Virus record (IMG/VR): IMGVR_UViG_3300008107_000208
Location: 1-64,000 of that record
Strand: one strand, 5' to 3'
Length of the DNA: 64,000 bases
Source: an uncultured virus (IMG/VR IMGVR_UViG_3300008107_000208)
Taxonomy: Duplodnaviria > Heunggongvirae > Uroviricota > Caudoviricetes
The notes under the pieces were generated by a model. The model was not told the origin of the DNA, did no database searches, and saw nothing but the letters and a program-made list of their open reading frames with translations. A program made the translations under genes and the position numbers. Positions 8,401-59,787 of the stretch are shown here, piece after piece; position 1 is the first letter of the stretch; each line of letters begins with the position of its first letter.

Positions 8401-11400
8401 TCCACAGGTTCCACAGGTGCTCAAGGTGCTGATGGAGCACAAGGATCTACAGGCTCTACAGGTGCTCAAGGTACAGCAGGAGCACAAGGATCTCAAGGAA
8501 CTGCTGGTGCACAAGGTACGGCAGGAGCACAAGGATCTACAGGTTCTACAGGTGCTCAAGGTGCTGATGGAAACTTTGGTGGTGCTGCTTTTGATTACAC
8601 ATTTGATAGTTCAACAGTAGATAGCGATCCAACACAAGGTAAATTAAGATTAAATCAAGTTGGAATAACAACAGCAAGTTATCTTTATATTCATAATGAT
8701 GATGATAATAATGTAGATATTACAAGTTATTTACAAACAATTGATGATTCAACTTCTAATATTAAGGGACATTTCACAATTGCACAAAAAGGAAATACTG
8801 CATATTTTGGATTATTTTCAATTGTAGGTCTTCATACTGAATATACAAATTACTTTGCAGTTCCTATTTCTTATGTTTCTGGTATTACGACATCATTTAC
8901 CAATAACCTTGATGTAATTATCACATTTGCTAGAACTGGTGATAAAGGAGATACAGGTGCACAAGGTTCTACCGGTTCCACTGGAGCACAAGGATCTACA
9001 GGTTCCACTGGAGCACAAGGATCTACAGGTTCCACTGGAGCACAAGGAACTGCTGGTGCTCAAGGTGCTGATGGATCTCAAGGTTCTACTGGTGTCACCG
9101 GTGCTCAAGGTTCCACAGGTGCCACTGGTGCTCAAGGTTCCACAGGTGCCACAGGTGCTCAAGGTGCTGATGGAGCACAAGGTTCAATAGGTGCCACCGG
9201 TGCTCAAGGTTCTACTGGTGTCACTGGTGCTCAAGGTTCTACTGGTGCTCAAGGTGCTGAAGGTGCTGAAGGTGCTCAGGGTGCTGAAGGTGCTCAAGGA
9301 ACCGCTGGTGCTCAAGGTTCCACAGGTGCTCAAGGTGCTGAAGGTGCTCAGGGTGCTGAAGGTGCTCAAGGAACCGCTGGTGCTCAAGGAACTGCTGGTG
9401 CTCAAGGATCTACAGGTGCTGAAGGTGCTCAAGGATCTACAGGTGCTGAAGGTGCTCAAGGAACCGCTGGTGCTCAAGGAACTGCTGGTGCTCAAGGTTC
9501 CACAGGTGCTACTGGTGCTGAAGGTGCTCAAGGAACCGCTGGTGCTCAAGGAACTGCTGGTGCTCAAGGTTCCACAGGTGCTACTGGTGCTGAAGGTGCT
9601 CAAGGTTCCACAGGTGCTACTGGTGCTGAAGGTGCTCAAGGAACCGCTGGTGCTCAAGGAACTGCTGGTGCTCAAGGTGCACAGGGTGCTGTTGGAGCAC
9701 AAGGAGCTGATGGTAACTTCGGTGGCGCTACATTTGACTATACTTTCTCTACAAACATTACTGCTAGTGACCCAGGAACTGGAATACTAAAGCTCAATAA
9801 CGCTACAGTTTCATCTGCTACGGTTCTATACATTGATGATGTTGACGATAACTCTACAGATATTCAGTCATTCTTAAGAACTATTGATGACTCTACTTCT
9901 ACTATTAAGGGTCACTTTAGAATTTCTAATAGACTGAATGCTGACGACTTTGCTCTGTTCACTATCTCTAGTGTGACTGAGAACACTGGATACTTCACAG
10001 TCAGTTGTGGATATGTATCTGGTAGTGCTTCTTCATTCAGTGATAGTGAAGACGTTATCATCACCTTTGCTAGGACTGGTGATAAAGGTGATGTAGGTGC
10101 TCAAGGATCTACAGGTGCTCAAGGTGCTCAAGGAACCGCTGGTGCTGAAGGTGCTCAAGGTGCTCAAGGTGCCACTGGATCTGGTGCTCAAGGTGCTCAG
10201 GGATCTACAGGTGCTCAAGGATCTATAGGTGCTCAAGGTGCCACTGGATCTGGTGCTCAAGGTGCTCAAGGAACCGCTGGTGCTGAAGGTGCTCAAGGTG
10301 CTCAAGGATCTACAGGTGCTCAAGGTGCCACTGGATCTGGTGCTCAAGGTGCTCAGGGATCTACAGGTGCTCAAGGATCTATAGGTGCTCAAGGATCTAC
10401 AGGTACTCAAGGTGCTCAAGGATCTACAGGTGCTCAAGGTGCCACTGGATCTGGTGCTCAAGGTGCTCAAGGAACCGCTGGTGCTGAAGGTGCTCAAGGT
10501 GCTCAAGGACCTGCAGGAGAGGGTGGCAGTGGATCTGGTGCTCAAGGTGCTCAAGGTGCTACTGGTGCTCAAGGTTTAGTAGGAGCACAAGGATCTACAG
10601 GTGCTCAAGGTGCTCAAGGATCTACAGGTGCTCAAGGATCTACAGGTGCTCAAGGTGCCACTGGATCTGGTGCTCAAGGATCTACAGGTGCTACTGGTGC
10701 TCAAGGATCTACAGGTGCTCAAGGTGCCACTGGATCTGGTGCTCAAGGATCTACAGGTGCTACTGGTGCTCAAGGATCTACAGGTGCTACTGGTGCTCAA
10801 GGTGCTCAAGGACCTGCAGGAGAGGGTGGCAGTGGATCTGGTGCTCAAGGTGCTCAAGGTGCTCAAGGTGCTCAAGGATCTACAGGTGCTCAAGGATCTA
10901 CAGGTACTCAAGGTGCTCAAGGATCTACAGGTGCTCAAGGATCTACAGGTGCTCAAGGTGCCACTGGATCTGGTGCTCAAGGTGCTCAAGGAACCGCTGG
11001 TGCTACTGGTGCTCAAGGTGCTCAAGGACCTGCAGGAGGGGGTGTCGGTGGCGGTGGAGAATTCATTTTAAGTGGTTCTTGTGGGACCATTTACAGTTCA
11101 GAAGCAGGAACTGGTGGCACTGGACTCAATAATTTCTTTGCTGGTTATTGTGCTGGTCAATCCAACACCAGTGGATCCTTTAACTTCTTTGCTGGACAAT
11201 GTGCTGGTGCCTGTAACACCACTGGATCCAATAACAACTTTATTGGACAAGGTGCTGGTGCCTGTAACACCACTGGATCCTTCAACAACTTCATTGGACA
11301 ATGTGCTGGTCGATGCAACAGCACTGGAACTAACAACAACTTCTTTGGACGATTTGCTGGATTCCGCAACACCATTGGAAACTACAACAACTTCATTGGA

Positions 11401-13339: not shown

Positions 13340-14634
13340 TCGATCTCATTATTCCAACAATGTGGTTTGCAAATAAATTTGAAGAATCTTTGCAAACTTA
13401 TGTAAGTCATAACTCAATTAACAAAATTATTATCGTTGACAATAATAAATTAAAAAGACCATCTTATGAGATTTTAAATCACTCAAAAATTGAAATTATT
13501 TCATATGGTAAAAATATTTTTGTAAATCCTGCTTGGAATGAGGGATATTTTCGATCAAAATCTAAAATTATTGGAATATTAAATGATGATATTAAAGTGT
13601 CATCAGAAATATTTGATATGATTATTGATTTTAATCTTTCAAATGGAGATTTGATTGGTGTAAATTTACAGGGAAGGCAAAATAATTATAAAATTGATGA
13701 TTATATTGATACAAAAGAAGAGATTGTAAAATTAAATTATGATCCCACAAAACCTATTGGAGGTCAGTCGTGGGCATTCGGAATCTGTATGTTTATGTTA
13801 AGAGAATCATATAAAGTTATACCATCTCTATATCAAGTTTGGTATGGTGATGATTTTTTTGTACAATATGCAAAAAACATTTACGCGATTAATTCAAATA
13901 AAATTAAAGGAACTATTTCGGAAACACTTACAAAGTTTGAAGACCCCGACAGTGATATTTCAAAAAGAATTGAATTAGATTCAAAAAACTTGATATCATA
14001 TGATCATTTTATCAATGGAAAAAATTGGGAAATCCCACACAATATGATAAAACTTTATGAACATCAACGTAAAGATAAAAATATAAAATCAGGTGTATTT
14101 GATTTAGAGTATCAAAGAGCAAGGAAAATACCAAGTGATATCAACGAAAATGTTCATGAACTTTATGAATTAGCAAAAGAATGTAAGACCGTAGTGGAAA
14201 TGGGAGTTAGAACAGGAGTTAGTACTAGAGCATTTTTAAACACTAATGCTAAACTTTTTTCCTTTGATATCATATTAGATTCAAATGTTCAAAAACTTTT
14301 TGATCTTGCTAAACGACAAGGAAAATCTGCGGAATATATTCAAGCAGATGTTCTCGATATAGAAATTGAAGAGACTGATTTATTGTTTATTGATACTTTT
14401 CACATATATGATCAACTTAAACGGGAATTAAATCTTCACGGAAACAAGGCACAAAAATATATTGTATTTCATGACACATATACATTTGGTCTTAAAGGAG
14501 AAGATGGAAAAGATGATAAAGGATTGTTATCTGCGGTTATTGAGTTTGTAATGAAGAATCCACACTGGAAATTTTATAAGTATAAAACAAACAATAATGG
14601 ATTGACAGTTTTAAAAAGAGATGATATAATATAA
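13336..14634 (+). CDS. Glycosyltransferase family 2-like domain fused to SAM-dependent methyltransferase
   Basis: IIPT..IVDN..NDD..GDD N-domain; EMGVRTGVST..LFIDT.H..HDT C-domain. Confidence 0.8.
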   Translation: MIDLIIPTMWFANKFEESLQTYVSHNSINKIIIVDNNKLKRPSYEILNHSKIEIISYGKNIFVNPAWNEGYFRSKSKIIGILNDDIKVSSEIFDMIIDFNLSNGDLIGVNLQGRQNNYKIDDYIDTKEEIVKLNYDPTKPIGGQSWAFGICMFMLRESYKVIPSLYQVWYGDDFFVQYAKNIYAINSNKIKGTISETLTKFEDPDSDISKRIELDSKNLISYDHFINGKNWEIPHNMIKLYEHQRKDKNIKSGVFDLEYQRARKIPSDINENVHELYELAKECKTVVEMGVRTGVSTRAFLNTNAKLFSFDIILDSNVQKLFDLAKRQGKSAEYIQADVLDIEIEETDLLFIDTFHIYDQLKRELNLHGNKAQKYIVFHDTYTFGLKGEDGKDDKGLLSAVIEFVMKNPHWKFYKYKTNNNGLTVLKRDDII

Positions 14635-14694: not shown

Positions 14695-15597
14695 ATGAAA
14701 TCAAAATATAGTATTTTTCATGTGCAGGGTGGTATTGGAAAACATATTGCGGCCACCGCAGTAGCAAAAGCAATTAAAGCAAATCACCCAGATCGTAAAT
14801 TAGTTATAGTCTGTGCATATGCAGATATTTTTATAAATCTTCCTTATGTTCATAGAGTTTATACCATAGGAACAACGCAGTATTTTTATCAAGAATATAT
14901 TCAAGATAAAGATTCTATTCTATTTCATAATGAACCATATTATACAACTAATCATATTCATAAACGTAAACGTTTAATTGAGAATTGGTGTGATATGTAT
15001 GGTATTAAATATTCTAGAGAAAGACCAGAAATAAGATTTAATAAACTTCAACAAAATATATCCAGAGAAGTTTGGAAACGAAAAAAACCAGTTATGATTA
15101 TTCATACTAACGGTGGAGTTATGACCACTGATTCGAAACCATATTCTTGGACAAGAGATATGCCATTTGATCTTGCAGAAAAACTTGTAGATTATTATAA
15201 ATCTGAATATCATATTATTCAACTTACAAAAGTTAATTCGCCAAAACTAGAAGGTGTCGAGCACATTTTTGCAACACCAGAAAAATCTTTATCTTTGATG
15301 GAATACTTTAGTATTGTTCTTCATGCTAAAAAAAGAATCTTAATTGATTCTTGTGTTCAACATGCTGCTGCCGCACTAAATAAAAAATCAACAGTTCTTT
15401 GGAATGGGACTAGTCCAAAAGTATTTGGATATGATCTGCATGATAATATCTCCACAACAGTTCCATATGATTTTAAATTACCGGGGAGTTATCTTTTTGA
15501 TTTTGACTTTGATGGTAATGAAGTTGAGTATCCTTATGAAGAGGGAACCGAACTGTTTGATTTTAATGAAATTGTTAAATCCGTTGATGCTCAGTAA
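14695..15597 (+). CDS. GT-B-fold (GT9-like) glycosyltransferase
   Basis: GGIGK N-terminal motif; IDS..QH.AAAL...VLW motif. Confidence 0.7.
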   Translation: MKSKYSIFHVQGGIGKHIAATAVAKAIKANHPDRKLVIVCAYADIFINLPYVHRVYTIGTTQYFYQEYIQDKDSILFHNEPYYTTNHIHKRKRLIENWCDMYGIKYSRERPEIRFNKLQQNISREVWKRKKPVMIIHTNGGVMTTDSKPYSWTRDMPFDLAEKLVDYYKSEYHIIQLTKVNSPKLEGVEHIFATPEKSLSLMEYFSIVLHAKKRILIDSCVQHAAAALNKKSTVLWNGTSPKVFGYDLHDNISTTVPYDFKLPGSYLFDFDFDGNEVEYPYEEGTELFDFNEIVKSVDAQ

Positions 15598-15606
15598 ATT
15601 AAGTCT

Positions 15607-16521
15607 ATGGTAGAACCAGTGCAAAAAACTTATTATTTTATGGCGGGACTTCCTCGCTCTGGAAGTACAATTTTATCTAGCATTTTAAATCAAAATCCAA
15701 GGTTTTATTCTGGTCCTAGTTCTCCTGTGACTGGGTTGATGATTATGTTAGAACAACAATTGTCTCAGGACGAGTTGTTTTTGGCATATCCAAAACCAGA
15801 ACAAGCATCAATGATTATTTCCAATATTATTCATCAATATTATTTTGATGTAAAAAAACCAGTAATTTTTGACAAGAATAGATCTTGGGTAAATCGAATT
15901 CATTACATTGAAGGTTACTTGGGAATTACACCAAAAATTATTTGTCCTGTTAGAAACATTGATGAAATTTTAGCATCTTTTATTTCGATGCATCGTCGTA
16001 ATCCATATGAAGTAAATGGAAAAATAAACTTTATTGATGATATGTTAGTTAAATCTAATATTTTATTAACGGATGATAATCGTTGTGAATTTCTTGTAAG
16101 TGAATCTGGAATTCTTGGACAAAGTTATTTGGGAATTCGTGATGTACTAACGAAAGGGCAGGAAAAATATTTGCATTTTGTTGAATATGATGATCTTGTT
16201 AGTTTTCCAGAAAAAACAATGAAGAAAATTTATGAGTTTCTTGATGAAGAATATTATGAACACGAATTTGATAATCTTATTAACATTAATGAGGAAAATG
16301 ATGCCTCTACTTATGGTTTAAGTGATATGCATTATGTTAGAAAGGAGTTGAAAAAAACTTCTTTATCTCCAAAAGAAATTCTTTCCGATGAAATCTTATC
16401 AAGATGTAAAGGACTTGAATTTTGGAGAGATCTTGAATCAATTGATTATGAAGATATTGAATTGAATATAAATGCAAATAATCAGGTCTTTGAAGATTCA
16501 AAAAACTTTATAGGAGCTTAA
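15607..16521 (+). CDS. Sulfotransferase family protein
   Basis: GLPRSGST PAPS-binding loop; VR....AS; YDDLV..P. Confidence 0.85.
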   Translation: MVEPVQKTYYFMAGLPRSGSTILSSILNQNPRFYSGPSSPVTGLMIMLEQQLSQDELFLAYPKPEQASMIISNIIHQYYFDVKKPVIFDKNRSWVNRIHYIEGYLGITPKIICPVRNIDEILASFISMHRRNPYEVNGKINFIDDMLVKSNILLTDDNRCEFLVSESGILGQSYLGIRDVLTKGQEKYLHFVEYDDLVSFPEKTMKKIYEFLDEEYYEHEFDNLININEENDASTYGLSDMHYVRKELKKTSLSPKEILSDEILSRCKGLEFWRDLESIDYEDIELNINANNQVFEDSKNFIGA

Positions 16522-16524
16522 AAA

Positions 16525-16794
16525 ATGGCAAGAACTCAAGAACAAATTTTGCAAACAATTACTGTAGCTAAAGATAGTGTTTGGGTGATTGAAGATGCTA
16601 TTGAAAAATTAGATGGTGGAGAAACGCCCTCCAAAGACTTAAAATCTAATATTGATCGTAATGTTGGACACCTTAAACTTGTTGTTACTGACCAAGAAAT
16701 TGTAGATTCTGGAGAAGATATTTCAGATCTAGAATCTGCAATTATAACTGGCGAAGCAAAACTTGCTGAAAACATTTGGTTAACTAATCTTTGA
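16525..16794 (+). CDS. Hypothetical protein
   Basis: ORF track; AGGAG RBS. Confidence 0.7.
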   Translation: MARTQEQILQTITVAKDSVWVIEDAIEKLDGGETPSKDLKSNIDRNVGHLKLVVTDQEIVDSGEDISDLESAIITGEAKLAENIWLTNL

Positions 16795-16817
16795 TGATGG
16801 GTGTACGTTCTCTTTAA

Positions 16818-16918
16818 GGTCTTCAAGATTCCTTGTATCTTTGGGAATGAAGACCCTCTCTGTGGTGGGAGAGGTGAGTTGGTGGTTAAAAAAGGAGAGT
16901 TTTATACTCTCTTTTTTT
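16818..16918 (+). ncRNA. Putative structured small RNA, copy 1, including terminator
   Basis: 59-nt core (16830-16888) 58/59 identical to 58905-58963; two hairpins; GAGAGT/ACTCTC-T7 terminator. Confidence 0.6.
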
Positions 16919-16920
16919 AT

Positions 16921-16949
16921 TTGACTTTATGTATGATATTGGTTATAAT
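16921..16949 (+). promoter_or_regulatory. sigma70-type promoter
   Basis: TTGACT-17 nt-TATAAT. Confidence 0.7.
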
Positions 16950-17005
16950 CCTTTAAGAATTCAAAGAAAAGATAAATAACTTGAAAGGAATATAGTGGTT
17001 AGATA

Positions 17006-18367
17006 ATGGCTCTAAACTTTCCAGATAGTCCATCAGTAAATGATATTTTTACATCTAGTAACTCCAGATGGATATGGAATGGAACATCTTGGGTTAGGCA
17101 GGGAACACCTGGAACTCAAGGTGCTCAAGGATCTACAGGTGCTCAAGGTGCTCAAGGATCTACAGGTGCTCAAGGTGCTCAAGGTGCTGTAGGGGATCAA
17201 GGTGCTCAAGGATCTACAGGTGCTGAAGGTGCTCAAGGTGCTCAAGGTTCAGTAGGAGCACAAGGATCTACAGGTGTACAAGGCACAGTTGGTGCTCAAG
17301 GTTCAGTAGGAGCACAAGGATCTACAGGTGCTCAAGGTGCTCAAGGTGCTCAAGGTGCTCAAGGTGCTCAAGGTGCTCAAGGAACCGCAGGTACATCAGG
17401 ATCTCAAGGTACTATAGGTGCTCAAGGTGCTCAAGGTGCTACTGGTGCTCAAGGAACCGCAGGTGCATCAGGATCTCAAGGTTCCACAGGTGCTCAAGGT
17501 GATGTAGGTGCTCAAGGTGCTCAAGGTGATGTAGGTGCTCAAGGATCTACAGGTGTACAAGGCACAGTTGGTGCTCAAGGTTCCACAGGTGCTCAAGGTG
17601 CTACTGGTGCTCAAGGTGCTACTGGTGCTCAAGGTTCAGTAGGAGCACAAGGATCTACAGGTGCTCAAGGTGCTCAAGGTTCCACAGGTGCTCAAGGTGC
17701 TCAAGGTTCCACAGGTGCTCAAGGTGCTCAAGGAACCGCAGGTACATCAGGATCTCAAGGTACTATAGGTGCTCAAGGTGCTCAAGGATCTACAGGTACT
17801 CAAGGTGCTCAAGGATCTACAGGTGCTCAAGGTGCTGTAGGTGCACAGGGTGCTGTTGGATCTCAAGGTACTTCTGGCGCTATAACTTTTGCATCAGGCA
17901 CTTTGATGTTATTCCAACAGACAGCAGCACCTACTGGTTGGACCAAACAAACAACTCATAATAATAAAGCACTTAGAGTAGTAAGTGGATCTGCAAGTTC
18001 TGGTGGTACGACCGCATTTACAAGTGTATTTGCTTCTAGGACACCATCTGGTTCTGTTTCGGTTTCTGGATCTAACTCTGGCGGTTCTGTAAGTAATACT
18101 ACACTAACCACTTCAGAGATGCCATCCCACAACCACTCATCAACATCTGGGCAATTTTTGCTTGATAATGGTGGAGGTGGTTCTCAAGGATTTGCCGGTG
18201 GTGGTACAATTGTTGGTCTCAGCCCAAATACCACATCAACTGGTGGTGGAAACTCTCACGGACACGGATTTACTAATCCATCTTGGTCTGGTTCAGCATC
18301 TTTTACAGGTACAGCAATGGACTTTGCTGTCCAATATGTTGACTTAATTATTGCTTCTAAAGACTAA
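17006..18367 (+). CDS. Collagen-like fibre with MALNFP N-terminal module and tail-collar-like C-terminus
   Basis: MALNFPDSP...[11 protein letters not shown] tract; GTLMLF.Q..APTGW...LT..EMPSHNH. Confidence 0.85.
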
Positions 18368-18392
18368 TACTGATATAATATAATTTTTAGAT

Positions 18393-18737
18393 ATGGCTAA
18401 AATTAAACCAGGAAACTTTTGTCCACTTATTAAGAAAGACTGCATTGGTCTTAAGTGTTCATGGTACACTCAGATGAGAGGTACTAATCCAAACACAGGA
18501 GAACCAGTTGATGAGTGGGGGTGTGCAGTAACTTGGATGCCTTTTATGGCAGTTGAAATAGCACAAAAATCAAATCAGACTGGAGCAGCAGTAGAGAGTT
18601 TTAGGAATGAAGTTGTGCGAGCAAACTATCAAAACCAAGAACTTTATAAAGAAGCACTTAAGCAACAAATTATTCCTGCACAAATTACACCACTCAATCA
18701 ACCTATAAATATCTTAGAAGAAGGTAAAGAAGAATGA
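18393..18737 (+). CDS. Cys-rich fibre-associated hypothetical protein
   Basis: CPL...C....C.W...WGCA motif; follows fibre gene. Confidence 0.7.
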   Translation: MAKIKPGNFCPLIKKDCIGLKCSWYTQMRGTNPNTGEPVDEWGCAVTWMPFMAVEIAQKSNQTGAAVESFRNEVVRANYQNQELYKEALKQQIIPAQITPLNQPINILEEGKEE

Positions 18738-19249
18738 GAATTACACTTATTCCAAGTGATAAAACAATTGGAATTGATAATGAGTTTTATCGTAATATTG
18801 AACAGGATTTTTCTTGGATTCCGTCAAATATTCATGCTGTTCAATGGTATGATACCTGGGGTGAGATTGAGTATATTGATGGATCTCCCAATAAAAGAAT
18901 TGAGGAGTTGGGTATTTTTGAACAGGCAGTTTTGGATTTTAATAATGAAAAGGAAAGAATTGATACTGAACTTGAGGCATTAAATAAAGAGAATGAGGAG
19001 AAAAAAATTTTAGAAGAATTGGCATTGGAAGCAGCAAGAAATTACTGGAAAGAATTTAGAAATATAAGAGATAGTCTTTTATCTAGATGTGATTGGACTC
19101 AATCTCCAGATTCCCCACTAACAGAAGAAAAGAAAGATGAGTGGGCAACATATCGTCAGATATTGCGAGATCTCCCAGTTATTATTAGTGATCCAAAACC
19201 AATGGTTAATGATTTAAATCACGAGAATTGGCCAACTAAACCAGATTAA
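18734..19249 (+). CDS. Tail fibre assembly chaperone-like protein
   Basis: RN.RD.LL..CDWTQ..D....W..YRQ.LRDLP...WP.KP. Confidence 0.8.
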   Translation: MRITLIPSDKTIGIDNEFYRNIEQDFSWIPSNIHAVQWYDTWGEIEYIDGSPNKRIEELGIFEQAVLDFNNEKERIDTELEALNKENEEKKILEELALEAARNYWKEFRNIRDSLLSRCDWTQSPDSPLTEEKKDEWATYRQILRDLPVIISDPKPMVNDLNHENWPTKPD

Positions 19250-19250
19250 T

Positions 19251-19568
19251 ATGATATTTTTTGATAATGATGTTTTTAAGTTAAGTGAGAAGTTGAATGT
19301 CACAACCATAAATTATGGTTTGACTGATATTAGTATACTTGATAATTTTTATTGTGATTTAGATGCGGTTAATTGTGAGATAGAAAAACTACCTATAACT
19401 TTAGTGGGTGGTCTTTACAAACCAGATAATGGTAAAAAATATATTGATGGTAGAAAAATTTATATTCAGAACATGAGGGGAACTGAACTACCATATCTAG
19501 TGAATGATCAGTTAAAAAAAGTAGTTTCAAAAATTTCAAAAAATAGTTTGACTGAACCAACTACATAA
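19251..19568 (+). pseudogene. Probably 3'-truncated 2OG-Fe(II)/DUF6445-like gene
   Basis: ILDNFY N-terminal motif as in 22977-23561 but no HxD...H core; runs into the next promoter. Confidence 0.45.
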
Positions 19569-19576
19569 GGTATAAT
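19548..19576 (+). promoter_or_regulatory. sigma70-type promoter of glycosylation operon
   Basis: TTGACT-17 nt-TATAAT. Confidence 0.75.
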
Positions 19577-19599: not shown

Positions 19600-20832
19600 A
19601 TGGATTATAAGTTCAGCATTATTTCGCCATCCCACAAGAACACTCCCTACCTTCAAGAACTCTACGAAAGTCTGTGTGCTCAGACTTATGAGAACTGGGA
19701 GTGGATTTTGTGGTTGAATGGTAAGTTTAACCGTAGCAAACTCTCTCCAGAAATTGAGAATGATGGGAGGGTAAAGATCTACGAGTGTAATGAAAATAAT
19801 CCTAACGTTGGGTTTCACAAGAGCAAGGCATTCCATCTTGGTTCTGGTGATGTCCTTGTGGAAGTTGACCATGATGATATGATCACACCAGACTGTCTGG
19901 AAGAACTTAACAAGGCATACCAAGACGAGAGTGTTGGTTTTGTGTACAGTGATGTTGCTGTGTATGATGATAACTTTGTTCCTTATAATGAGCAGCATGG
20001 TTGGTCTTACTACTTCTACAATTTTCGTGGTAAAGACCGTTATGTGATGAACTCTTGGCGTCCAACTAGTCAGGCATTATCATTCATCTGGTATTCTCCT
20101 GACCATGTTAGATCTTGGAGAAGGAGTGTTTATCAATCAATCGGTGGGCATAATGTTCAATTAAGTATATGTGATGACCACGAGTTGATGATAAGAACCT
20201 ATCTGAATACGAAGATGTATCATATTCAAAAACCTCTTTACATCTATAGGGTTTATGGTGACAATACTTACCTAGAAAGAAATGCTCAAATTCAAACTAA
20301 GACCGTAGACCTTTATTATGAGTATGGATATCAACTTGCAGAGAAAGATGCAGAAGACCGTGGACTTCTGAAAGTTGATATTGGTGGTGGACTTTATCCT
20401 CGTCCTGGTTATGTAACCATTGACCAGGAGGGTGCTGATATTACTTGTGACCTGAATGATGGCATCCCACTTCCTGATAATAGTGTTGGTGTTTTGAATG
20501 CAAGTCATGTTCTAGAGCACCTGAGAGACCCTGTTAAGTCAATGAGAGAAATTCATCGGGTCCTTGCACACGGTGGTTGGGCAATGATTGAGGTTCCTTC
20601 TACTGATGGTAGGGGTGCATTCCAAGACCCAACTCACGTTAGCTTCTGGAATGAACATAGTTTCTGGTATTATACCAACAAACAGCTAGCAAACTTCATT
20701 AGAAACTATGATATTCGCTTTCAAACGTATCGGTTAAATACTTGGGAAATGGCACCACATATTCCTGTTGTCACTGCTTGGTTGACAGCAATTAAGGATG
20801 AAGAACGTTTCCCTGGAATTCTTGCAATTTAA
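19600..20832 (+). CDS. GT2 glycosyltransferase fused to class I methyltransferase
   Basis: FSIISP..DHDD..DD.EL; DIGGG...SHVLEH..EIHRVL..GG. Confidence 0.85.
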   Translation: MDYKFSIISPSHKNTPYLQELYESLCAQTYENWEWILWLNGKFNRSKLSPEIENDGRVKIYECNENNPNVGFHKSKAFHLGSGDVLVEVDHDDMITPDCLEELNKAYQDESVGFVYSDVAVYDDNFVPYNEQHGWSYYFYNFRGKDRYVMNSWRPTSQALSFIWYSPDHVRSWRRSVYQSIGGHNVQLSICDDHELMIRTYLNTKMYHIQKPLYIYRVYGDNTYLERNAQIQTKTVDLYYEYGYQLAEKDAEDRGLLKVDIGGGLYPRPGYVTIDQEGADITCDLNDGIPLPDNSVGVLNASHVLEHLRDPVKSMREIHRVLAHGGWAMIEVPSTDGRGAFQDPTHVSFWNEHSFWYYTNKQLANFIRNYDIRFQTYRLNTWEMAPHIPVVTAWLTAIKDEERFPGILAI

Positions 20833-20837
20833 TTTTT

Positions 20838-21863
20838 ATGGCACTTGCATATGTAATCGGCGCAGGAACAGCAGGTTCAACTGCCGCTAGAATTTTAAAA
20901 GATAATGGGTGGGATGTAGAAGTATTTGAAACTAGATCTTATATTTCTGGTAATTGCTACGACTATATTGATGAAAAGACCCGTTGTATTGTCCATGCAC
21001 ATGGTCCACACGCAATTCATACTAATAGTGAGAAAGTCTGGAACTGGTTGCATCAGTTTTCGGAGTTTAATGATTTCTCAGTCAAGGTCTGGGCAAATAC
21101 TAAACTGGGTAAAATCCCCATTCCTTATAATGATACGTCTGATAGAATTATTGGACGACGACTTTCTGATGAAGAAATTATTGATTTAGTCTTCAGGGAT
21201 TATTCTGAAAAGATGTGGAATACTCCCTTTGAGGAACTTCCTCAGAGTATTCTTGCACGACTAGCAGTAAGAAATCCTGGTGAAGAAACTTACTTTGTGA
21301 ATAACAAGTATCAGGGTCTTCCTAAGTATGGATTTGTTCGGATGTTTGAAAACATTCTGGATGGTATCCCCGTTCATTTGGATACACCCAGAGATGAGTG
21401 GAGAAAACTGAAAGACAAGTGTGACCTGTTGGTTTATACTGGTAAGGTTGATAATTACTTTGATTATCAGTTTGGCGAATTAACTTATCGCTCTTTGAAT
21501 TTTGAACACGTCTATTGCCCTAAAACTCTTTATATTCAACTGAATGAATGTAATAAAGAGAATGGATGGAACCGTGCAATTGACCATTCCTACTGGTATA
21601 AACAGGATGTAGAAACAACAATTGTCACAAGAGAGTATCCTGTTCCTCACGTTGATGGTGTGAACAATCCATATTATCCAATGATATTTGGTGAGTATCT
21701 CAGTCAGTTCAGACTGTATGAACCTCTGATGCAGGCAGAAAAGAACACAGTATTCACTGGAAGAACTGCTACTTATGAATATCTGACGATTGATGAAACC
21801 ATCATCAAGACTGCTAAAAAACTGAAGAAACTTGGACTATCTGATTCTATTTTAACGCCATGA
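20838..21863 (+). CDS. glf: UDP-galactopyranose mutase
   Basis: GAG.AG FAD motif, GNCYD, HGPH..HT, YQGLP..G, L.YRSL, PYYP, GR.A.Y.Y. Confidence 0.92.
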   Translation: MALAYVIGAGTAGSTAARILKDNGWDVEVFETRSYISGNCYDYIDEKTRCIVHAHGPHAIHTNSEKVWNWLHQFSEFNDFSVKVWANTKLGKIPIPYNDTSDRIIGRRLSDEEIIDLVFRDYSEKMWNTPFEELPQSILARLAVRNPGEETYFVNNKYQGLPKYGFVRMFENILDGIPVHLDTPRDEWRKLKDKCDLLVYTGKVDNYFDYQFGELTYRSLNFEHVYCPKTLYIQLNECNKENGWNRAIDHSYWYKQDVETTIVTREYPVPHVDGVNNPYYPMIFGEYLSQFRLYEPLMQAEKNTVFTGRTATYEYLTIDETIIKTAKKLKKLGLSDSILTP

Positions 21864-22975
21864 AGAAAACTAAACTATGTCTCAATGTAATGCTTGGAAA
21901 TGAGGAGCACGTCGTTGAGAGAATGCTTAATTCTTGTTATAAGCACATTGACTATTGGATTATCCAGTGTAATGGTAACGACCGCACTCAACAGATGGTT
22001 GAAGACTTTTTTCAACAAAAAGGTATTCCTGGATTTACCTACAATGTAGAATGGCACTATCCTGGTTGGAATAGTGATGACTTGGTTCAGAAATGTACAG
22101 AGACTGACCACGGTTGTGACTGGTTATTCAGAATTGATGCTGATGAACAACTACACGTTGATGATGACTTTGATTGGAGTGTTTTAGAAGATACTTCAAT
22201 TGATGCCTGGGATGTTACGGCACAGTCTGATAATTGTATTTGGTATCGTTGCCGTCTATGGAATACAAAAATTCCCTGGAGGTTTAGGCACGACAAGAGG
22301 CACGAGTGTATTCTGAAACCTGGATGTGTTCCAACGGGAGAAGAGTTTCCAAGAATAAGTCTGGCAAGAGGATTTAGACACATCATTATTAACGATGGTC
22401 GGACTTGGGTAAATCCAACTAAGTTCTTTACTGATGCTGTTGAACTTGAGAACCAACACATTTCCAACAACACAATGCTAGAGGATGTTTATCACTTCTG
22501 GTATATTGCTAAAAGTTATAATGATGCTGCTTATGGTACTTATCCTTTAGGTGAAACGCATAATCAGGAGATGGCACGTCGTGCTTTATTTTATTATGAA
22601 GAGTATCTGAATTATCGATTTAATTATCATCAACTTGGATATGTAACTGGTATTGATGAGATGGCATATTTTACTTTATGTGCTATGGGAGACTTGAATC
22701 GAACTTGCAATAATTTTGAAAAAGCAATTGACTGCTATATTCGTGCAGAAGAATGGTGTCCACCAAGAAATGAACATCTTGTGGGATTATCTGAGTGCTA
22801 CAGAACTTTAGGTGATTATCAGATGATGAAGATGCAGACGGAAAGATTGATTGATCCGAGCAGAGTTAATCCTTTTCCCACATATCACTTCCTTGTCAAT
22901 AGTAACTATTATATAGATACCGGTGATTATGGAAAATCGCTTCATCAAATCGTATGTGAAAACTTATGCAATTGA
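21860..22975 (+). CDS. GT2-like glycosyltransferase with C-terminal TPR-like helices
   Basis: IDADE DxD motif, HE motif, helical repeats. Confidence 0.75.
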   Translation: MKKTKLCLNVMLGNEEHVVERMLNSCYKHIDYWIIQCNGNDRTQQMVEDFFQQKGIPGFTYNVEWHYPGWNSDDLVQKCTETDHGCDWLFRIDADEQLHVDDDFDWSVLEDTSIDAWDVTAQSDNCIWYRCRLWNTKIPWRFRHDKRHECILKPGCVPTGEEFPRISLARGFRHIIINDGRTWVNPTKFFTDAVELENQHISNNTMLEDVYHFWYIAKSYNDAAYGTYPLGETHNQEMARRALFYYEEYLNYRFNYHQLGYVTGIDEMAYFTLCAMGDLNRTCNNFEKAIDCYIRAEEWCPPRNEHLVGLSECYRTLGDYQMMKMQTERLIDPSRVNPFPTYHFLVNSNYYIDTGDYGKSLHQIVCENLCN

Positions 22976-22976
22976 T

Positions 22977-23561
22977 ATGAAATACCTTCCAGTCTCATCA
23001 ATAAATAGACAGTCGCAGAAAACTATATGGGTTGTTGATAATTTTTATGCTAACCCATATGCTGTAAGAGAATTTGCTCTTCAGCAAGAGTTTTCTGAAG
23101 ATTTAAATTATTTCAAAGGAAGTCGTTCAAAAGAACAATACTTCGTTCCTGGAACAAAAGAAGCATTTGAAAAAATCATGGGTATCAAAATCCGTGAATG
23201 GGAGTCTCATGGAATGTGTGGTCGTTTTCAATACTGTACCTCACAAGATGCCCTTGTCTATCATCACGATGGTCAAACCTGGGCTGCTATGATATATCTC
23301 AACCCAGATGCTCCTTATTGTACAGGAACTTCTCTTTACGCTAGTAAGAATGGTGCTAGGAGAACTGGTGACCCCAACTTTACGGATGATGTATTTGCTG
23401 GTGGTTTTTACGATGAAACCAAGTTTGAGTTAGTTGACTCTATTGGTAATGTCTTCAATAGACTATTCATCTTTGACGCTCAAAATATTCACGCAGCATC
23501 AAAATACTTTGGTCAAACCAAAGAAGATTCACGACTCTTTCACATTTTCTTTTTCGACTAA
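22977..23561 (+). CDS. 2OG-Fe(II) oxygenase-like (DUF6445-type) protein
   Basis: VVDNFY, HHD, WAAMIYL, GTS, FNRL..F....HA, RL..FF; ATG 22977 preferred over track start. Confidence 0.75.
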   Translation: MKYLPVSSINRQSQKTIWVVDNFYANPYAVREFALQQEFSEDLNYFKGSRSKEQYFVPGTKEAFEKIMGIKIREWESHGMCGRFQYCTSQDALVYHHDGQTWAAMIYLNPDAPYCTGTSLYASKNGARRTGDPNFTDDVFAGGFYDETKFELVDSIGNVFNRLFIFDAQNIHAASKYFGQTKEDSRLFHIFFFD

Positions 23562-23563
23562 AA

Positions 23564-23806
23564 ATGAATTTTACAGTTTACTCAAAAGAAGGTTGTCCAT
23601 ATTGCGACAAAGTAAAAAAAGTCTTAGAGTTGACAAACACTCAGTTTGTCGTGTATACTCTTAGTGAGGACTTTACTAGAGAAGAATTCTATTCTGAATT
23701 TGGTGAAGGTTCTACCTTCCCTCAGGTTATTTGTGATGATAAAAAGCTAGGAGGTTCCGTTGACACAATCAGATTCCTCAAAGAACAACAAGTCATCAAG
23801 TCATAA
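23564..23806 (+). CDS. Glutaredoxin
   Basis: CPYC, TFPQV, LGG. Confidence 0.92.
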   Translation: MNFTVYSKEGCPYCDKVKKVLELTNTQFVVYTLSEDFTREEFYSEFGEGSTFPQVICDDKKLGGSVDTIRFLKEQQVIKS

Positions 23807-25927: not shown

Positions 25928-26013
25928 TGGTACAGTTCATGGTATCAACTACTGCTGCGATTGCTTTAACAACCGTATTTTTATCAATGTATGTTCAGTG
26001 GTTGGACAAATAA
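25927..26013 (+). CDS. 28-aa hydrophobic peptide
   Basis: TAATG coupling at both ends; AGGAG RBS. Confidence 0.55.
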   Translation: MVQFMVSTTAAIALTTVFLSMYVQWLDK

Positions 26014-26321: not shown

Positions 26322-26495
26322 ATGCACAACCTTGTCTCTTACAATCAACTTGCAGAATGGCGACACTTTGAGCAAACAGTTGACCGTTGTAATGATGAAA
26401 TGGAGTTAGTCAATGATTATTTTAACTGTCTAATAGAATGTGATGATGACCAACAAACTTGTAAACGGGTATGTAGAAATATGCTGAGTGAGTAA
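26322..26495 (+). CDS. 57-aa four-Cys protein (CLIEC...CKRVC)
   Basis: GGAGG RBS before ATG 26322; CxxxC...CxxxC. Confidence 0.75.
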   Translation: MHNLVSYNQLAEWRHFEQTVDRCNDEMELVNDYFNCLIECDDDQQTCKRVCRNMLSE

Positions 26496-26501
26496 TAAGA
26501 T

Positions 26502-26539
26502 GGGGAGGTCTTGACGACCTCCCTTTTTTTGTGTAAAAT
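26502..26539 (+). terminator. Terminator overlapping a sigma70-type promoter
   Basis: GGGAGGTC/GACCTCCC-T7; TTGACG(26511)-17 nt-TAAAAT(26534). Confidence 0.7.
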
Positions 26540-56314: not shown

Positions 56315-57166
56315 ATGTCTATTATTCAATCATTTTTTATGGGATCATCTTCATCACCATTGAGTGTTGAAGTTCTTATGATGGGTGGTGGTGGTGGAGC
56401 ATCATCTCTTCTAGCAATTAATCCTATTGCTAGAGATGACGATGTTTATTGGCCAAATTACTATGGAGGCGGCGGGGGTGGTGCTGGGGGATTATATATT
56501 TACTCGGCAACATTAAATCCTGGAAGCAGTTCTACAGTCACAATTGGTGGAGGTGGAAGTGGTTCTGCCGATGGATCTCCAACTTCATTTACTGGTGCTT
56601 CTAATGCTGTTGGTGGTGGATATGGAGCAGCAAGTGATACTGGTGTAGCCTGGACAGGCCGACCTGGTGGATCTGGAAGTGGTGGTAGCAGTGGTGGCGC
56701 CGGCGGATCCGGAACTTCTGGTCAAGGAAATTCTGGTGGATCATCCACTAGTAACGCGCAATGGGGAGCAGGAGGTGGTGGAGGAAAAGGTGGTGCTGGT
56801 AGTCCAGGACCATATCCTGTCGGTGGTGCTGGAGGACCTGGTTATGATTTAGCAACTTTTAGAGGAGGGACTTCACTAACAGTTGCTTTTGGAGGGGGTG
56901 GTGCCGGATGGAGTAGTGTCGGAAATAATGGTGATGGAACCACGACTCAATCACCTGCTTCTAATACAGGGGGTGGTGCTAGAAATGCTATCGGAAATTA
57001 CTTGGGCCCTGCAGGTACTTTCTCTGGTGGATCAGGAAGAGTCATCGTTCGCTATGCTGGATCTACACAAAGAGCAACAGGAGGAACTGTAACAACAGCG
57101 ACTGTTGGTGGATCTCCTTATACTATTCACGATTTCACCGCAAATGGTACATTCTCTGTAACTTAA
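56315..57166 (+). CDS. Glycine-rich fibre-tip protein
   Basis: VEVL..GGGG, GGGGGAGG, GGSG.VIVRY, IH.FT..GTF.V. Confidence 0.75.
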   Translation: MSIIQSFFMGSSSSPLSVEVLMMGGGGGASSLLAINPIARDDDVYWPNYYGGGGGGAGGLYIYSATLNPGSSSTVTIGGGGSGSADGSPTSFTGASNAVGGGYGAASDTGVAWTGRPGGSGSGGSSGGAGGSGTSGQGNSGGSSTSNAQWGAGGGGGKGGAGSPGPYPVGGAGGPGYDLATFRGGTSLTVAFGGGGAGWSSVGNNGDGTTTQSPASNTGGGARNAIGNYLGPAGTFSGGSGRVIVRYAGSTQRATGGTVTTATVGGSPYTIHDFTANGTFSVT

Positions 57167-58146: not shown

Positions 58147-58846
58147 TCAAATTTACCACACATCTCACTGTGGTTCTACTTTAATGGCAACATTATTGGC
58201 GAATTCTACAACTGTTTATTGCGAACCATCATGGTCTTCTAGGTTATTAAATGGTGAGTTGGAACTTGATGATGCCACTATTAAATTTGGAAGTGGATGG
58301 TGTCCGTTTTCACATCAACTACCGGGTAAAAAAGTTTTCTTGTATAGGAAATTAAAACATCATCTGTTTAAAATAAAATCATCAAACTATATTAATCGTA
58401 TTGTATCTACAAAGTATGAACATCATCTAAAACATTGTCACCCATCTTTAAAGGAATATCAGTTTACAACTGATCTTGAGAAAATTACTTTTATGTGGTT
58501 GAATAATGTTCAATGGATAAGTGATATTGGTGATGTCTTATGGGTAGAATCAAATAGTTTTTTTGAGAATAAAAAAGAAACTATGGATAAAGTATGTGAT
58601 CACTTTAATTTAGATAGAGTAAAAAACTATGAACTATCTAATGTTTATGTGAAGTCTTTTGGTCTGATAGGGAAAGAAAAATCAATTAATGAAACTGAGA
58701 TACCAAATTTAGGTACAGTAAAATCTTTATACCCTTCTTTTGGTATCATTGATGATGACTTATGTGATCTATGTCCTGAAATTAATGATTTAGTTTCATG
58801 GATTAAAAAAGAAATACCCAGTATGCAAATTGATTTTCTAAATTAA
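58136..58846 (+). CDS. Sulfotransferase-like/P-loop protein
   Basis: HTSHCGSTL...LL, EP, LYR motifs. Confidence 0.6.
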   Translation: MKINQIYHTSHCGSTLMATLLANSTTVYCEPSWSSRLLNGELELDDATIKFGSGWCPFSHQLPGKKVFLYRKLKHHLFKIKSSNYINRIVSTKYEHHLKHCHPSLKEYQFTTDLEKITFMWLNNVQWISDIGDVLWVESNSFFENKKETMDKVCDHFNLDRVKNYELSNVYVKSFGLIGKEKSINETEIPNLGTVKSLYPSFGIIDDDLCDLCPEINDLVSWIKKEIPSMQIDFLN

Positions 58847-58859
58847 AAAATTACTAGAC

Positions 58860-58888
58860 TTGACAATCCCCAAATAATCCTTTATAAT
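58860..58888 (+). promoter_or_regulatory. Consensus sigma70 promoter driving the putative sRNA
   Basis: TTGACA-17 nt-TATAAT. Confidence 0.85.
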
Positions 58889-58894
58889 AATCAA

Positions 58895-58995
58895 GTCTTT
58901 CAAATCCTTGTATCTTTGGGAATGAAGACCCTCTCTGTGGTGGGAGAGATGAGTTGGTGGTTACTAGAGAGGGTCTTAGCACCCTCTCTTTTTTT
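58895..58995 (+). ncRNA. Putative structured small RNA, copy 2, including terminator
   Basis: Between a consensus promoter and AGAGAGGGT/ACCCTCTCT-T run; near-identical to 16830-16888. Confidence 0.7.
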
Positions 58996-59006
58996 GCCTA
59001 GACCCC

Positions 59007-59035
59007 TTGACACCAGGACCCAGACCCCCTATAAT
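59007..59035 (+). promoter_or_regulatory. Consensus sigma70 promoter of the small-ORF/tRNA operon
   Basis: TTGACA-17 nt-TATAAT. Confidence 0.85.
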
Positions 59036-59060
59036 ACTCAGGTAATCAACGGAACATCCA

Positions 59061-59255
59061 ATGGGAACCGCACAAGAATCTGTCCTGGGCATTGTTATTG
59101 ATGTCTGCACTCGCTCTTTCCTTCTCATTAGTGATGAAGGTAATGAGAAAATGGTAGAGTGTGAAACTGTTCAGGAGTTTATGAATGTCCTGGAAGTTGT
59201 TACTGCTAACCTTGAACCTCATCAAATCGAATACGCTGATATTGCTGTAGAATAA
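59061..59255 (+). CDS. Hypothetical protein
   Basis: ORF track; directly after promoter. Confidence 0.7.
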   Translation: MGTAQESVLGIVIDVCTRSFLLISDEGNEKMVECETVQEFMNVLEVVTANLEPHQIEYADIAVE

Positions 59256-59257
59256 TA

Positions 59258-59431
59258 ATGGAAGTGTTTACTGTAAAAGAGTGGGAAGAAAACTTTGATG
59301 CTCTCCTAGAACGAGTAGAACAAGGAGAGCACATTGGTATCATTGGAGAAGATGGTAAGGCAGCAGTTATGATGCCTGCCGATGATGAACTTATACGAAT
59401 ACACACTGAGTTAAACAACGAAGCTCAGTAA
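59258..59431 (+). CDS. 57-aa Phd/YefM antitoxin-like protein
   Basis: Hand-translated: TVKE...NF..LL.RV..GE.I.I....K.AV..P. Confidence 0.6.
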   Translation: MEVFTVKEWEENFDALLERVEQGEHIGIIGEDGKAAVMMPADDELIRIHTELNNEAQ

Positions 59432-59443
59432 GTTCATCATCTA

Positions 59444-59531
59444 GGAAGTGAGACTTGGTAGTCAGAGGAGTCTTATAAACTCTTTCCGCCAGATTAGCGG
59501 CTTTGAGGTGGTTCGAATCCACCCACTTCTA
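59444..59531 (+). tRNA. tRNA-Ile(UAU), atypical, long variable arm
   Basis: GGAAGTG/CACTTCT acceptor, GGAGT-CTTATAA-ACTCT anticodon arm, GGTGG-TTCGAAT-CCACC T arm. Confidence 0.75.
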
Positions 59532-59627
59532 TTGGTAGTCGTTAGGCAGATAGCCTAAAAAGACGCCAACTTCTACTACGGGTATCTTCCGTAGCGTCGT
59601 ATGGGAAGGGCAATGTTCTTCCCAATT
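59532..59627 (+). ncRNA. Candidate structured RNA between tRNAs
   Basis: Three consecutive hairpins: TTAGGC/GCCTAA, CTACGG/CCGTAG, TGGGAAG/CTTCCCA. Confidence 0.45.
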
Positions 59628-59634
59628 ACATAAA

Positions 59635-59708
59635 GCAGGTTTAGCAATCTGGTAGAATGCTCAGAACTCATAATTCTGCGAAGGCGAGTTCGATCCTCGC
59701 AACCTGCA
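59635..59708 (+). tRNA. tRNA with CAU anticodon (elongator Met or Ile2)
   Basis: GCAGGTT/AACCTGC, CAGAA-CTCATAA-TTCTG, GCGAG-TTCGATC-CTCGC. Confidence 0.88.
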
Positions 59709-59713
59709 CCTAC

Positions 59714-59787
59714 GCCCGCATAATCCAACAGGCAGAGATAGGGAGCTTAAAACTCCTCCAGTGTCGGTTCGAATCCGACTGTGGGTA
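59714..59787 (+). tRNA. tRNA-Leu(UAA), short variable loop
   Basis: GCCCGCA/TGTGGGT, GGGAG-CTTAAAA-CTCCT, GTCGG-TTCGAAT-CCGAC. Confidence 0.85.

Follow-up and report, generated by a model that had tools for sequence, protein, structure and literature searches.

A conserved, structured promoter-to-terminator RNA gene with two exposed GUGGU motifs in T4-type cyanophages related to S-SRM01

The window analyzed here, i.e., the whole stretch of 64,000 nt, corresponds to the opening 64 kb of a viral record that totals 77 kb, with an estimated completeness of ~37%, and the nearest cultured relative of the genome it belongs to is S-SRM01, a freshwater T4-type cyanophage of the Kyanoviridae. This genome carries two copies of a short RNA unit, 42 kb apart, hereafter termed copy A and copy B according to their order along the window. 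Copy B (58860-58995) is a compact arrangement running from a sigma-70-type promoter to an intrinsic terminator. The features of both loci are the following:

58860-58888, plus strand: sigma-70-type early promoter of copy B, TTGACA-17-TATAAT, 12 of 12 matches
58895-58929, plus strand: P1, the 5'-terminal hairpin, from the fold and the model alignment
58930-58949, plus strand: P2, a hairpin with the invariant loop GUGGUG at 58937-58942, from the fold and the model alignment
58950-58965, plus strand: unpaired linker with the second motif UUGGUGGU (58954-58961), from the MFE and centroid folds
58966-58995, plus strand: intrinsic terminator of copy B, with a 9-bp stem, a 6-nt loop and a T run
59007-59035, plus strand: second perfect early promoter, 12 of 12 matches, 11 nt past the T run of the terminator
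16817-16918, plus strand: copy A of the RNA, 87% identical to copy B, with its own terminator and no promoter of its own
16921-16949, plus strand: near-consensus early promoter right after the terminator of copy A, TTGACT-17-TATAAT, 11 of 12 matches

Every element that an earlier note, made from the letters of this DNA, had listed for copy B (the TTGACA-17-TATAAT promoter, the hairpins, the unpaired UUGGUGGU and the terminator) is present where that note had placed it. The promoter and P1 are separated by 6 nt, and P1 is composed of an outer stem, an internal loop, an inner 4-bp stem and a 9-nt loop (UGUAUCUUU). The outermost pair of P2 is a C/A mismatch in the model alignment, the GUGGUG loop has an unpaired probability of ~0.99, and the terminator stem (58966-58989) contains 9 pairs, five of them G-C, followed by six T. 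Promoters with at most one mismatch occur seven times in the window, against 1.10 +/- 1.02 in shuffled sequences, and none of 100 shuffles reached seven. The fold energy of copy B is by itself unremarkable (z = -1.14, with 24 of 200 shuffles at least as stable), and the case for something beyond chance therefore rests on the comparison with other sequences. Downstream, the promoter at 59007-59035 serves ORF 59061-59255 (Pfam DUF7294, E = 3.5e-19), one further small ORF and a cluster of three tRNA genes spanning 59444-59787. A 57-aa ORF (59258-59431) between the DUF7294 gene and the tRNA cluster matches the Phd/YefM antitoxin family weakly, at 21.9 bits, below the cut-off of 29.8 bits. The first tRNA of the cluster, an 88-nt tRNA-Ile(tat) at 59444-59531, is predicted by ARAGORN; the Rfam tRNA model at its gathering threshold gives only those at 59635-59708 and 59714-59787.

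Copy A differs from copy B by a single base over the ~65 nt of the core, and the two terminator stems differ by compensating changes. It scores 115.8 bits against the covariance model described below, compared with 100.9 bits for copy B, and is thus nearer to the family consensus, with which its core agrees almost completely. Copy A is preceded by ORF 16525-16794 and closes a 2.3-kb block whose first element is the perfect promoter at 14602-14630, the nearest plus-strand consensus promoter upstream of it, and its neighborhood is the sole promoter-less type among the 70 examined. Each copy forms with the sequence that follows a composite of a stem-loop/terminator and a (near-)consensus early promoter (58966-58995 with 59007-59035, and 16887-16919 with 16921-16949). 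Neither adjoins the glutaredoxin gene nrdC of the window (23564-23806), which lies directly 3' of another ORF. Copy A looks like the ancestral nrdC-side copy, now separated from nrdC by ~6.6 kb of promoter-bounded genes. In contigs L076, L148 and L272, the element adjoins the homologue of the window sequence from 23560 onward. Contig L102 has the element plus the promoter downstream of it joined directly to the homologue of the window sequence from 19596 onward, and because of this direct junction the 2.6-kb block bounded by the promoters at 16921 and 19548 is taken to be an indel. The block itself (17006-19576), not present in L102, comprises a 453-aa collagen-like gene with Gly-X-Y repeats and three further ORFs, flanked by the near-consensus early promoters at 16921-16949 and 19548-19576. 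The stretches 14695-16521 and 19600-23561 are likewise organized in promoter-bounded blocks, with sulfotransferase, 2OG-Fe(II) oxygenase-like and DUF6445 genes among further ORFs.

Homologues were sought by three pattern scans of IMG/VR contigs, with seeds taken from different parts of the element, which found 69, 110 and at least 119 stretches, the contigs being mostly shared between the scans. Fifty-seven distinct full elements were taken (excluded were L187, L254, L268 and L272, with no T run, and copies near the end of a locus), and the covariance model built from them recovers both copies of the window and one copy each in two complete viral genomes of 211 kb and 236 kb. It also detected a copy in S-SRM01 (10975-11078, 80.5 bits), where nothing is annotated between a hypothetical gene and the glutaredoxin gene; a blastn search with the core among 50,697 phage records gave no match. 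The words sRNA, small RNA and promoter are all absent from the S-SRM01 genome paper. Genomes carry one or two copies. As to whether the element stems from a host, scanning 185,579 species genomes with the pattern returned 9 matches, none with the architecture of the element, and the covariance model run on 151 sampled cyanobacterial genomes returned only terminator-like matches of 27-32 bits and no host homologue. Eight nrdC loci of marine cyanophages gave no match above 8.6 bits with filters off, and the upstream gaps of two of these loci, read by eye, contained no analogue. Within the genomes searched, the family appears confined to freshwater T4-type cyanophages related to S-SRM01.

Comparison with Rfam at gathering thresholds identified only two tRNAs in the whole window, and a search of 58700-59200 at E<=10 gave only chance-level matches to snoRNAs, the L20 leader and a frameshift element, the last two falling on the terminator. 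The earlier note had pointed to paired G-rich motifs in the wcaG RNA, with which the present RNA also shares its setting in cyanophage-type DNA, and had proposed an Rfam comparison including that family. A link to wcaG found no support: wcaG appears neither in the gathering search of the window nor in the E<=10 search of 58700-59200, in which no other cyanobacterial or phage family appears either, and no family could be matched to the RNA. As a further difference from wcaG, it does not seem to depend on one class of downstream gene. Its kind, a phage sRNA gene, is known, but the family is new: it is absent from Rfam, and no published description of it came up in the literature searched. The family may already be included, without a name, in an IMG/VR-derived catalogue comprising 8,495 structured-RNA candidates, in the available text of which DNAVirus_7143 and DNAVirus_8224 are located at most 25 bp upstream of glutaredoxin genes (PMC10690425).

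The architecture of the unit is conserved across the family. Among 70 distinct neighborhoods of 275 nt each, a promoter with no more than one mismatch is found in 69 (perfect in 56), invariably 6 nt upstream of the first G of P1; a T run is present in 67. The structure was tested on a structure-blind MAFFT alignment of the 57 distinct homologues, in which 97.5% of the structure cells pair, compared with 51-68% for slid partner columns. Ten pairs have both members changed; shuffles give 4.1 +/- 1.3, and ten was reached in none of 500. Compensatory changes are found in all four helices. In P2, the pairs 46-65 and 48-63 change from C-G to U-A in 7 and 5 of the 57 homologues, respectively, with 98.5% of cells paired; P1 is fully rewritten yet paired in L113/L443, L425 and S-SRM01 through compensatory replacement of both stems; and five of the seven pairs of the terminator stem are changed on both sides across the family. 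Additionally, near-fixed U-G pairs (in 56 and 47 of the 57) and many G-U variants of the terminator are compatible only with an RNA made from the plus strand.

Pattern scans force conservation of the parts on which they are seeded, and loci were for this reason also gathered through the neighboring glutaredoxin protein. This approach collected 80 loci (76-100% protein identity), 37 of which have the RNA directly upstream of nrdC, 36 scoring 79-128 bits and one being a degenerate remnant at 37 bits, and the structural picture is the same as in the set of 57. In 28 distinct loci, i.e., after dropping the remnant (L402) and a 5'-cut copy (L437), pairwise identity averages 0.894 in the RNA core, from P1 to the linker, 0.798 in the terminator, 0.941 at codon positions 1 and 2 of nrdC, 0.693 at its third codon positions and 0.497 in the promoter spacer. 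The P2-loop GTGGTG and the linker GTTGGTGGT are invariant in all 28, and the two UGGUG-type motifs are the most strictly conserved unpaired positions family-wide; in the distant members found by pattern scan, only GUGGU-type cores, 5-7 nt per motif, stay fixed. A P2 variant with a 2-nt insertion (CCACTTCTC instead of CCCTCTC) is common in the family and shifts any frame read across the core. That a real, conserved and structured RNA gene of ~100 nt lies at this locus can be held with high confidence. The view put forward in the earlier note, i.e., a stand-alone, promoter-to-terminator, non-coding RNA gene exposing two UGGUG-type motifs, is borne out by the family, to which the comparison adds the second copy, the usual place upstream of a glutaredoxin gene and the terminator-plus-promoter composite after the RNA.

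Several variants and minor features of these loci were also recorded. In about half of the family (e.g., L009), the window copies not among them, the linker reads TGGTATAAT, an extended -10 promoter form, and the other half has TTAC/TTAA variants in its place; transcripts started from TGGTATAAT would begin inside the 5' arm of the terminator and could escape termination and reach nrdC. The remnant in L402, upstream of nrdC, is promoter-less and has lost both GUGGU motifs, and in L386 a consensus-like promoter upstream of nrdC is immediately followed by a terminator-like hairpin, the RNA core being missing. A pseudoknot between the P1 loop and the linker was considered and rejected, since by eye the alignment shows A/U variation of the loop in the main group with no matching change in the linker. 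A G-quadruplex formed from the GG tracts conflicts with the covarying stem of P2. We take the linker to resemble the Chi octamer of E. coli, and a Chi-like recombination signal was set aside because only GUGGU is conserved in distant members.

The presence of a 5' hairpin at +1, a motif in a loop, a motif in single strand, a strong terminator and an early promoter led us to choose a trans-acting early sRNA as the preferred reading. It seems probable that the RNA acts in trans, either by base pairing or by protein capture. More specifically, and on a tentative basis, we favor a stand-alone early sRNA in which the two GUGGU motifs would serve as short redundant seeds pairing with ACCAC-type sites. 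Judging from the geometry of promoter and terminator, the consensus sigma-70 promoter would be used by host RNA polymerase immediately upon infection, with transcription beginning at or beside the first G of P1 and ending at the intrinsic terminator. An RNA protected by its 5' hairpin is predicted as the product, consisting of P1, P2, the single-stranded linker and the terminator hairpin. Its action in trans would be exerted through two near-identical, exposed G-rich motifs, the GUGGUG of the P2 loop and the UUGGUGGU of the linker, acting as a first choice as redundant seeds on ACCAC-type sites of host or phage RNAs and, as a close second, capturing an RNA-binding protein.

The closest known systems share parts of this design. 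Phage trans-acting sRNAs, as far as the available text of their description goes, are likewise compact, non-coding promoter-to-terminator units that begin with a hairpin, expose a conserved stretch ahead of the terminator and rely, in the present case by prediction, on the host polymerase for expression (PMC12197685); the present RNA has no sequence or model match to any described family, and its carriers are lytic T4-type cyanophages. The psbA antisense RNA of S-PM2 is also a non-coding RNA of a T4-type cyanophage, but it is presented in the available text as cis-encoded and antisense to a phage gene (PMC10690425), whereas here no gene lies on the opposite strand and the RNA has its own promoter and terminator. 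In the literature searched, no trans-acting sRNA is described for T4-type cyanophages. The RNA has clean boundaries, is under strong purifying selection and follows a simple two-motif design, and because it is present in a cultured pair, S-SRM01 and its Synechococcus host, its expression, its partner and its effect on infection are directly testable.

Searches for partners of the motifs gave the following picture. In a crude test, the 11-nt complement of the linker was not enriched over control in the two complete relatives and S-SRM01, nor in 401 sampled cyanobacterial genomes. The window shows an excess of near-matches to the linker complement, located mainly on the motif-bearing strand, where they correspond to glycine codons. 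Hairpins with a GUGGU loop (at least 6 bp) are also in excess, with eight in the window against 1.5 in block shuffles, all on the plus strand. Besides the two element copies, these are located at 2582, 25998, 37768, 39939, 42369 and 51436 (plus strand); the one at 25998 is found just upstream of a small ORF, and because the other five lie inside coding sequence the excess is treated as a codon effect.

The 5-7 nt that stay fixed per motif in distant members are short for an antisense seed and fit protein recognition equally well, which brings in a second reading of the same anatomy. The two GUGGU motifs, one in the loop and the other single-stranded ~20 nt downstream, could bind a dimeric or two-domain RNA-binding protein of host or phage, which an abundant early RNA would titrate or recruit. 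In favor of it, the fixed part is the short motif alone, with the flanking linker bases varying in distant members, the presentation of GUGGUG in a loop is retained while the P2 stem covaries, and no complementary nucleic-acid target stood out in the phage and cyanobacterial genomes searched. However, those target searches were crude and leave room for base pairing, and no RNA-binding family was found among the proteins encoded by neighboring genes. No protein of cyanobacteria or S-SRM01-type phages is known to bind a GUGGU motif. Among bacterial RNAs that act through several copies of a motif or as protein sponges are Firmicutes sRNAs with C-rich motifs and members of the CsrB/RsmZ class, and the present RNA resembles them in displaying a short motif at two places, a hairpin loop and a single-stranded stretch. 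Its motif is nonetheless the G-rich GUGGU, neither a C-rich seed nor GGA, and it has two such motifs and no Rfam match in place of the many GGA loops of a CsrB/RsmZ-type sponge. With only two motifs, each RNA could hold one partner. On balance, we regard protein titration or recruitment as possible but somewhat unlikely.

A bolder proposal, which the conserved anatomy allows and which we consider rather doubtful, is that the RNA is a decoy of a new type for host takeover. As a bulk RNA made from its consensus promoter in the first minutes of infection, it would use its two GUGGU motifs to clamp either a dimeric RNA-binding protein of the host or a pair of sites on a single essential host RNA, and would thereby reprogram translation or RNA decay in picocyanobacteria; the unit would in addition travel between phages as a cassette bounded by promoter and terminator. 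Picocyanobacteria are not known to have classical Hfq/CsrA circuits. T4-type cyanophages shape picocyanobacterial populations, and a takeover factor of this kind, if real, would indicate a post-transcriptional control point in freshwater picocyanobacteria.

The position of the RNA in most genomes suggests a different role, in cis. In 63 of the 70 neighborhoods, the start of a glutaredoxin ORF lies 31-49 nt past the T run, the interval containing no sigma-70 promoter, and the layout is the same in S-SRM01. The RNA could accordingly be the 5' leader of nrdC, with a terminator that sets or regulates read-through in response to a ligand or a protein, and with the short RNA as a by-product. A 10-bp alternative helix between the 5' arms of P2 and the terminator, private to copy B, would suit such a switch, but only certain lineages, including that of copy B, have any alternative helix. 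When transcripts are truncated ahead of the 3' arm of the terminator, the 5' arm is paired by 24% on average and by 0% in most, and this mostly free arm argues that there is no conserved antiterminator. Moreover, the terminators are strong, with a mean hairpin energy of -13.5 kcal/mol across the family, and at 43 of the 80 close nrdC homologues the RNA is missing and the upstream sequence is a different one, which in many of them includes a TATAAT-type box of its own. A TATAAAT box follows the terminator in 54 of the 70 neighborhoods and could serve nrdC alone. This box presumably resembles the late promoters of T4-type phages. In the window, neither copy precedes nrdC and both are directly followed by a (near-)consensus promoter. 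Within the lineage the RNA occurs in three contexts, which speaks against dependence on a particular downstream gene, and the position as a 5' leader that the earlier note had given for wcaG does not apply either, copy B having its own terminator and then a new promoter and the family showing at least three contexts. A leader function is hence quite unlikely, and a stand-alone sRNA is preferred.

The composites of terminator and promoter raise the question of whether the DNA, rather than the RNA, is what is maintained. In T4-type phages, PeSLs consist of a stem-loop/terminator followed by a near-perfect sigma-70 promoter (PMC2839356; PMC4122927, both as far as their available text goes). By analogy, the unit could be a mobile cassette kept as a terminator plus early-promoter module for recombination or shuffling between co-infecting phages, with an RNA that has no function of its own. 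Both window copies, with a (near-)consensus early promoter directly after the terminator, form a composite as in PeSLs and, as in the available description of the latter, appear to lie at the borders of variable gene cassettes (PMC4122927). In line with this possibility, the 2.6-kb indel seen in the comparison with L102 is bounded by such promoters, the element is duplicated in the lineage of the window, and two loci carry fusions, made at GTGGTGG, of its 5' half with a glycine-rich gene. Because of the composites, the indel and these fusions, the unit can be said to take part in cassette shuffling. However, a PeSL is, in the text available, a stem-loop and a promoter only, repeated many times, whereas here a conserved, covarying 70-nt core precedes the terminator, copies number one or two per genome instead of forming a series, and a downstream sigma-70 promoter is found in only 3 of the 70 neighborhoods. 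In addition, compensatory and G-U changes reveal selection on the fold of the plus-strand RNA, and the unpaired bases of loop and linker are more conserved than stems, spacer and synonymous sites. As read from the alignments, this pattern of selection is that of an RNA, and a cassette with a functionless transcript appears very unlikely. Under the preferred reading as an sRNA gene, the family would show that a regulatory RNA can move along with terminator/promoter cassettes in T4-type genomes.

The fusions themselves are found in L187 and L268, where the promoter, P1 and the 5' arm of P2 run, with GTGGTGG as the exact junction, straight into a glycine-rich coding sequence like that at 56315-57166 of the window (Pfam Gly_rich_2), linker and terminator being missing; judging from the junction, they look like the product of recombination at a shared GGTGG microhomology.

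A small protein gene, starting for instance from the ATG inside the 3' arm of P1, is extremely improbable: the overlapping ORFs of 61 aa (58916-59101) and 51 aa (16801-16956) are in different frames and both run through the terminators into the next promoter, the common 2-nt insertion in P2 shifts the frame, and the terminator region varies by compensatory changes and indels, all of which bears out the earlier note's remark that the region holds no credible ORF. A further, weak match to the covariance model lies at 26424-26528 (23.9 bits), mostly on a GGGGAGG/CCUCCC terminator, and purine-rich 5' arms may be usual among the terminators of the window phage.
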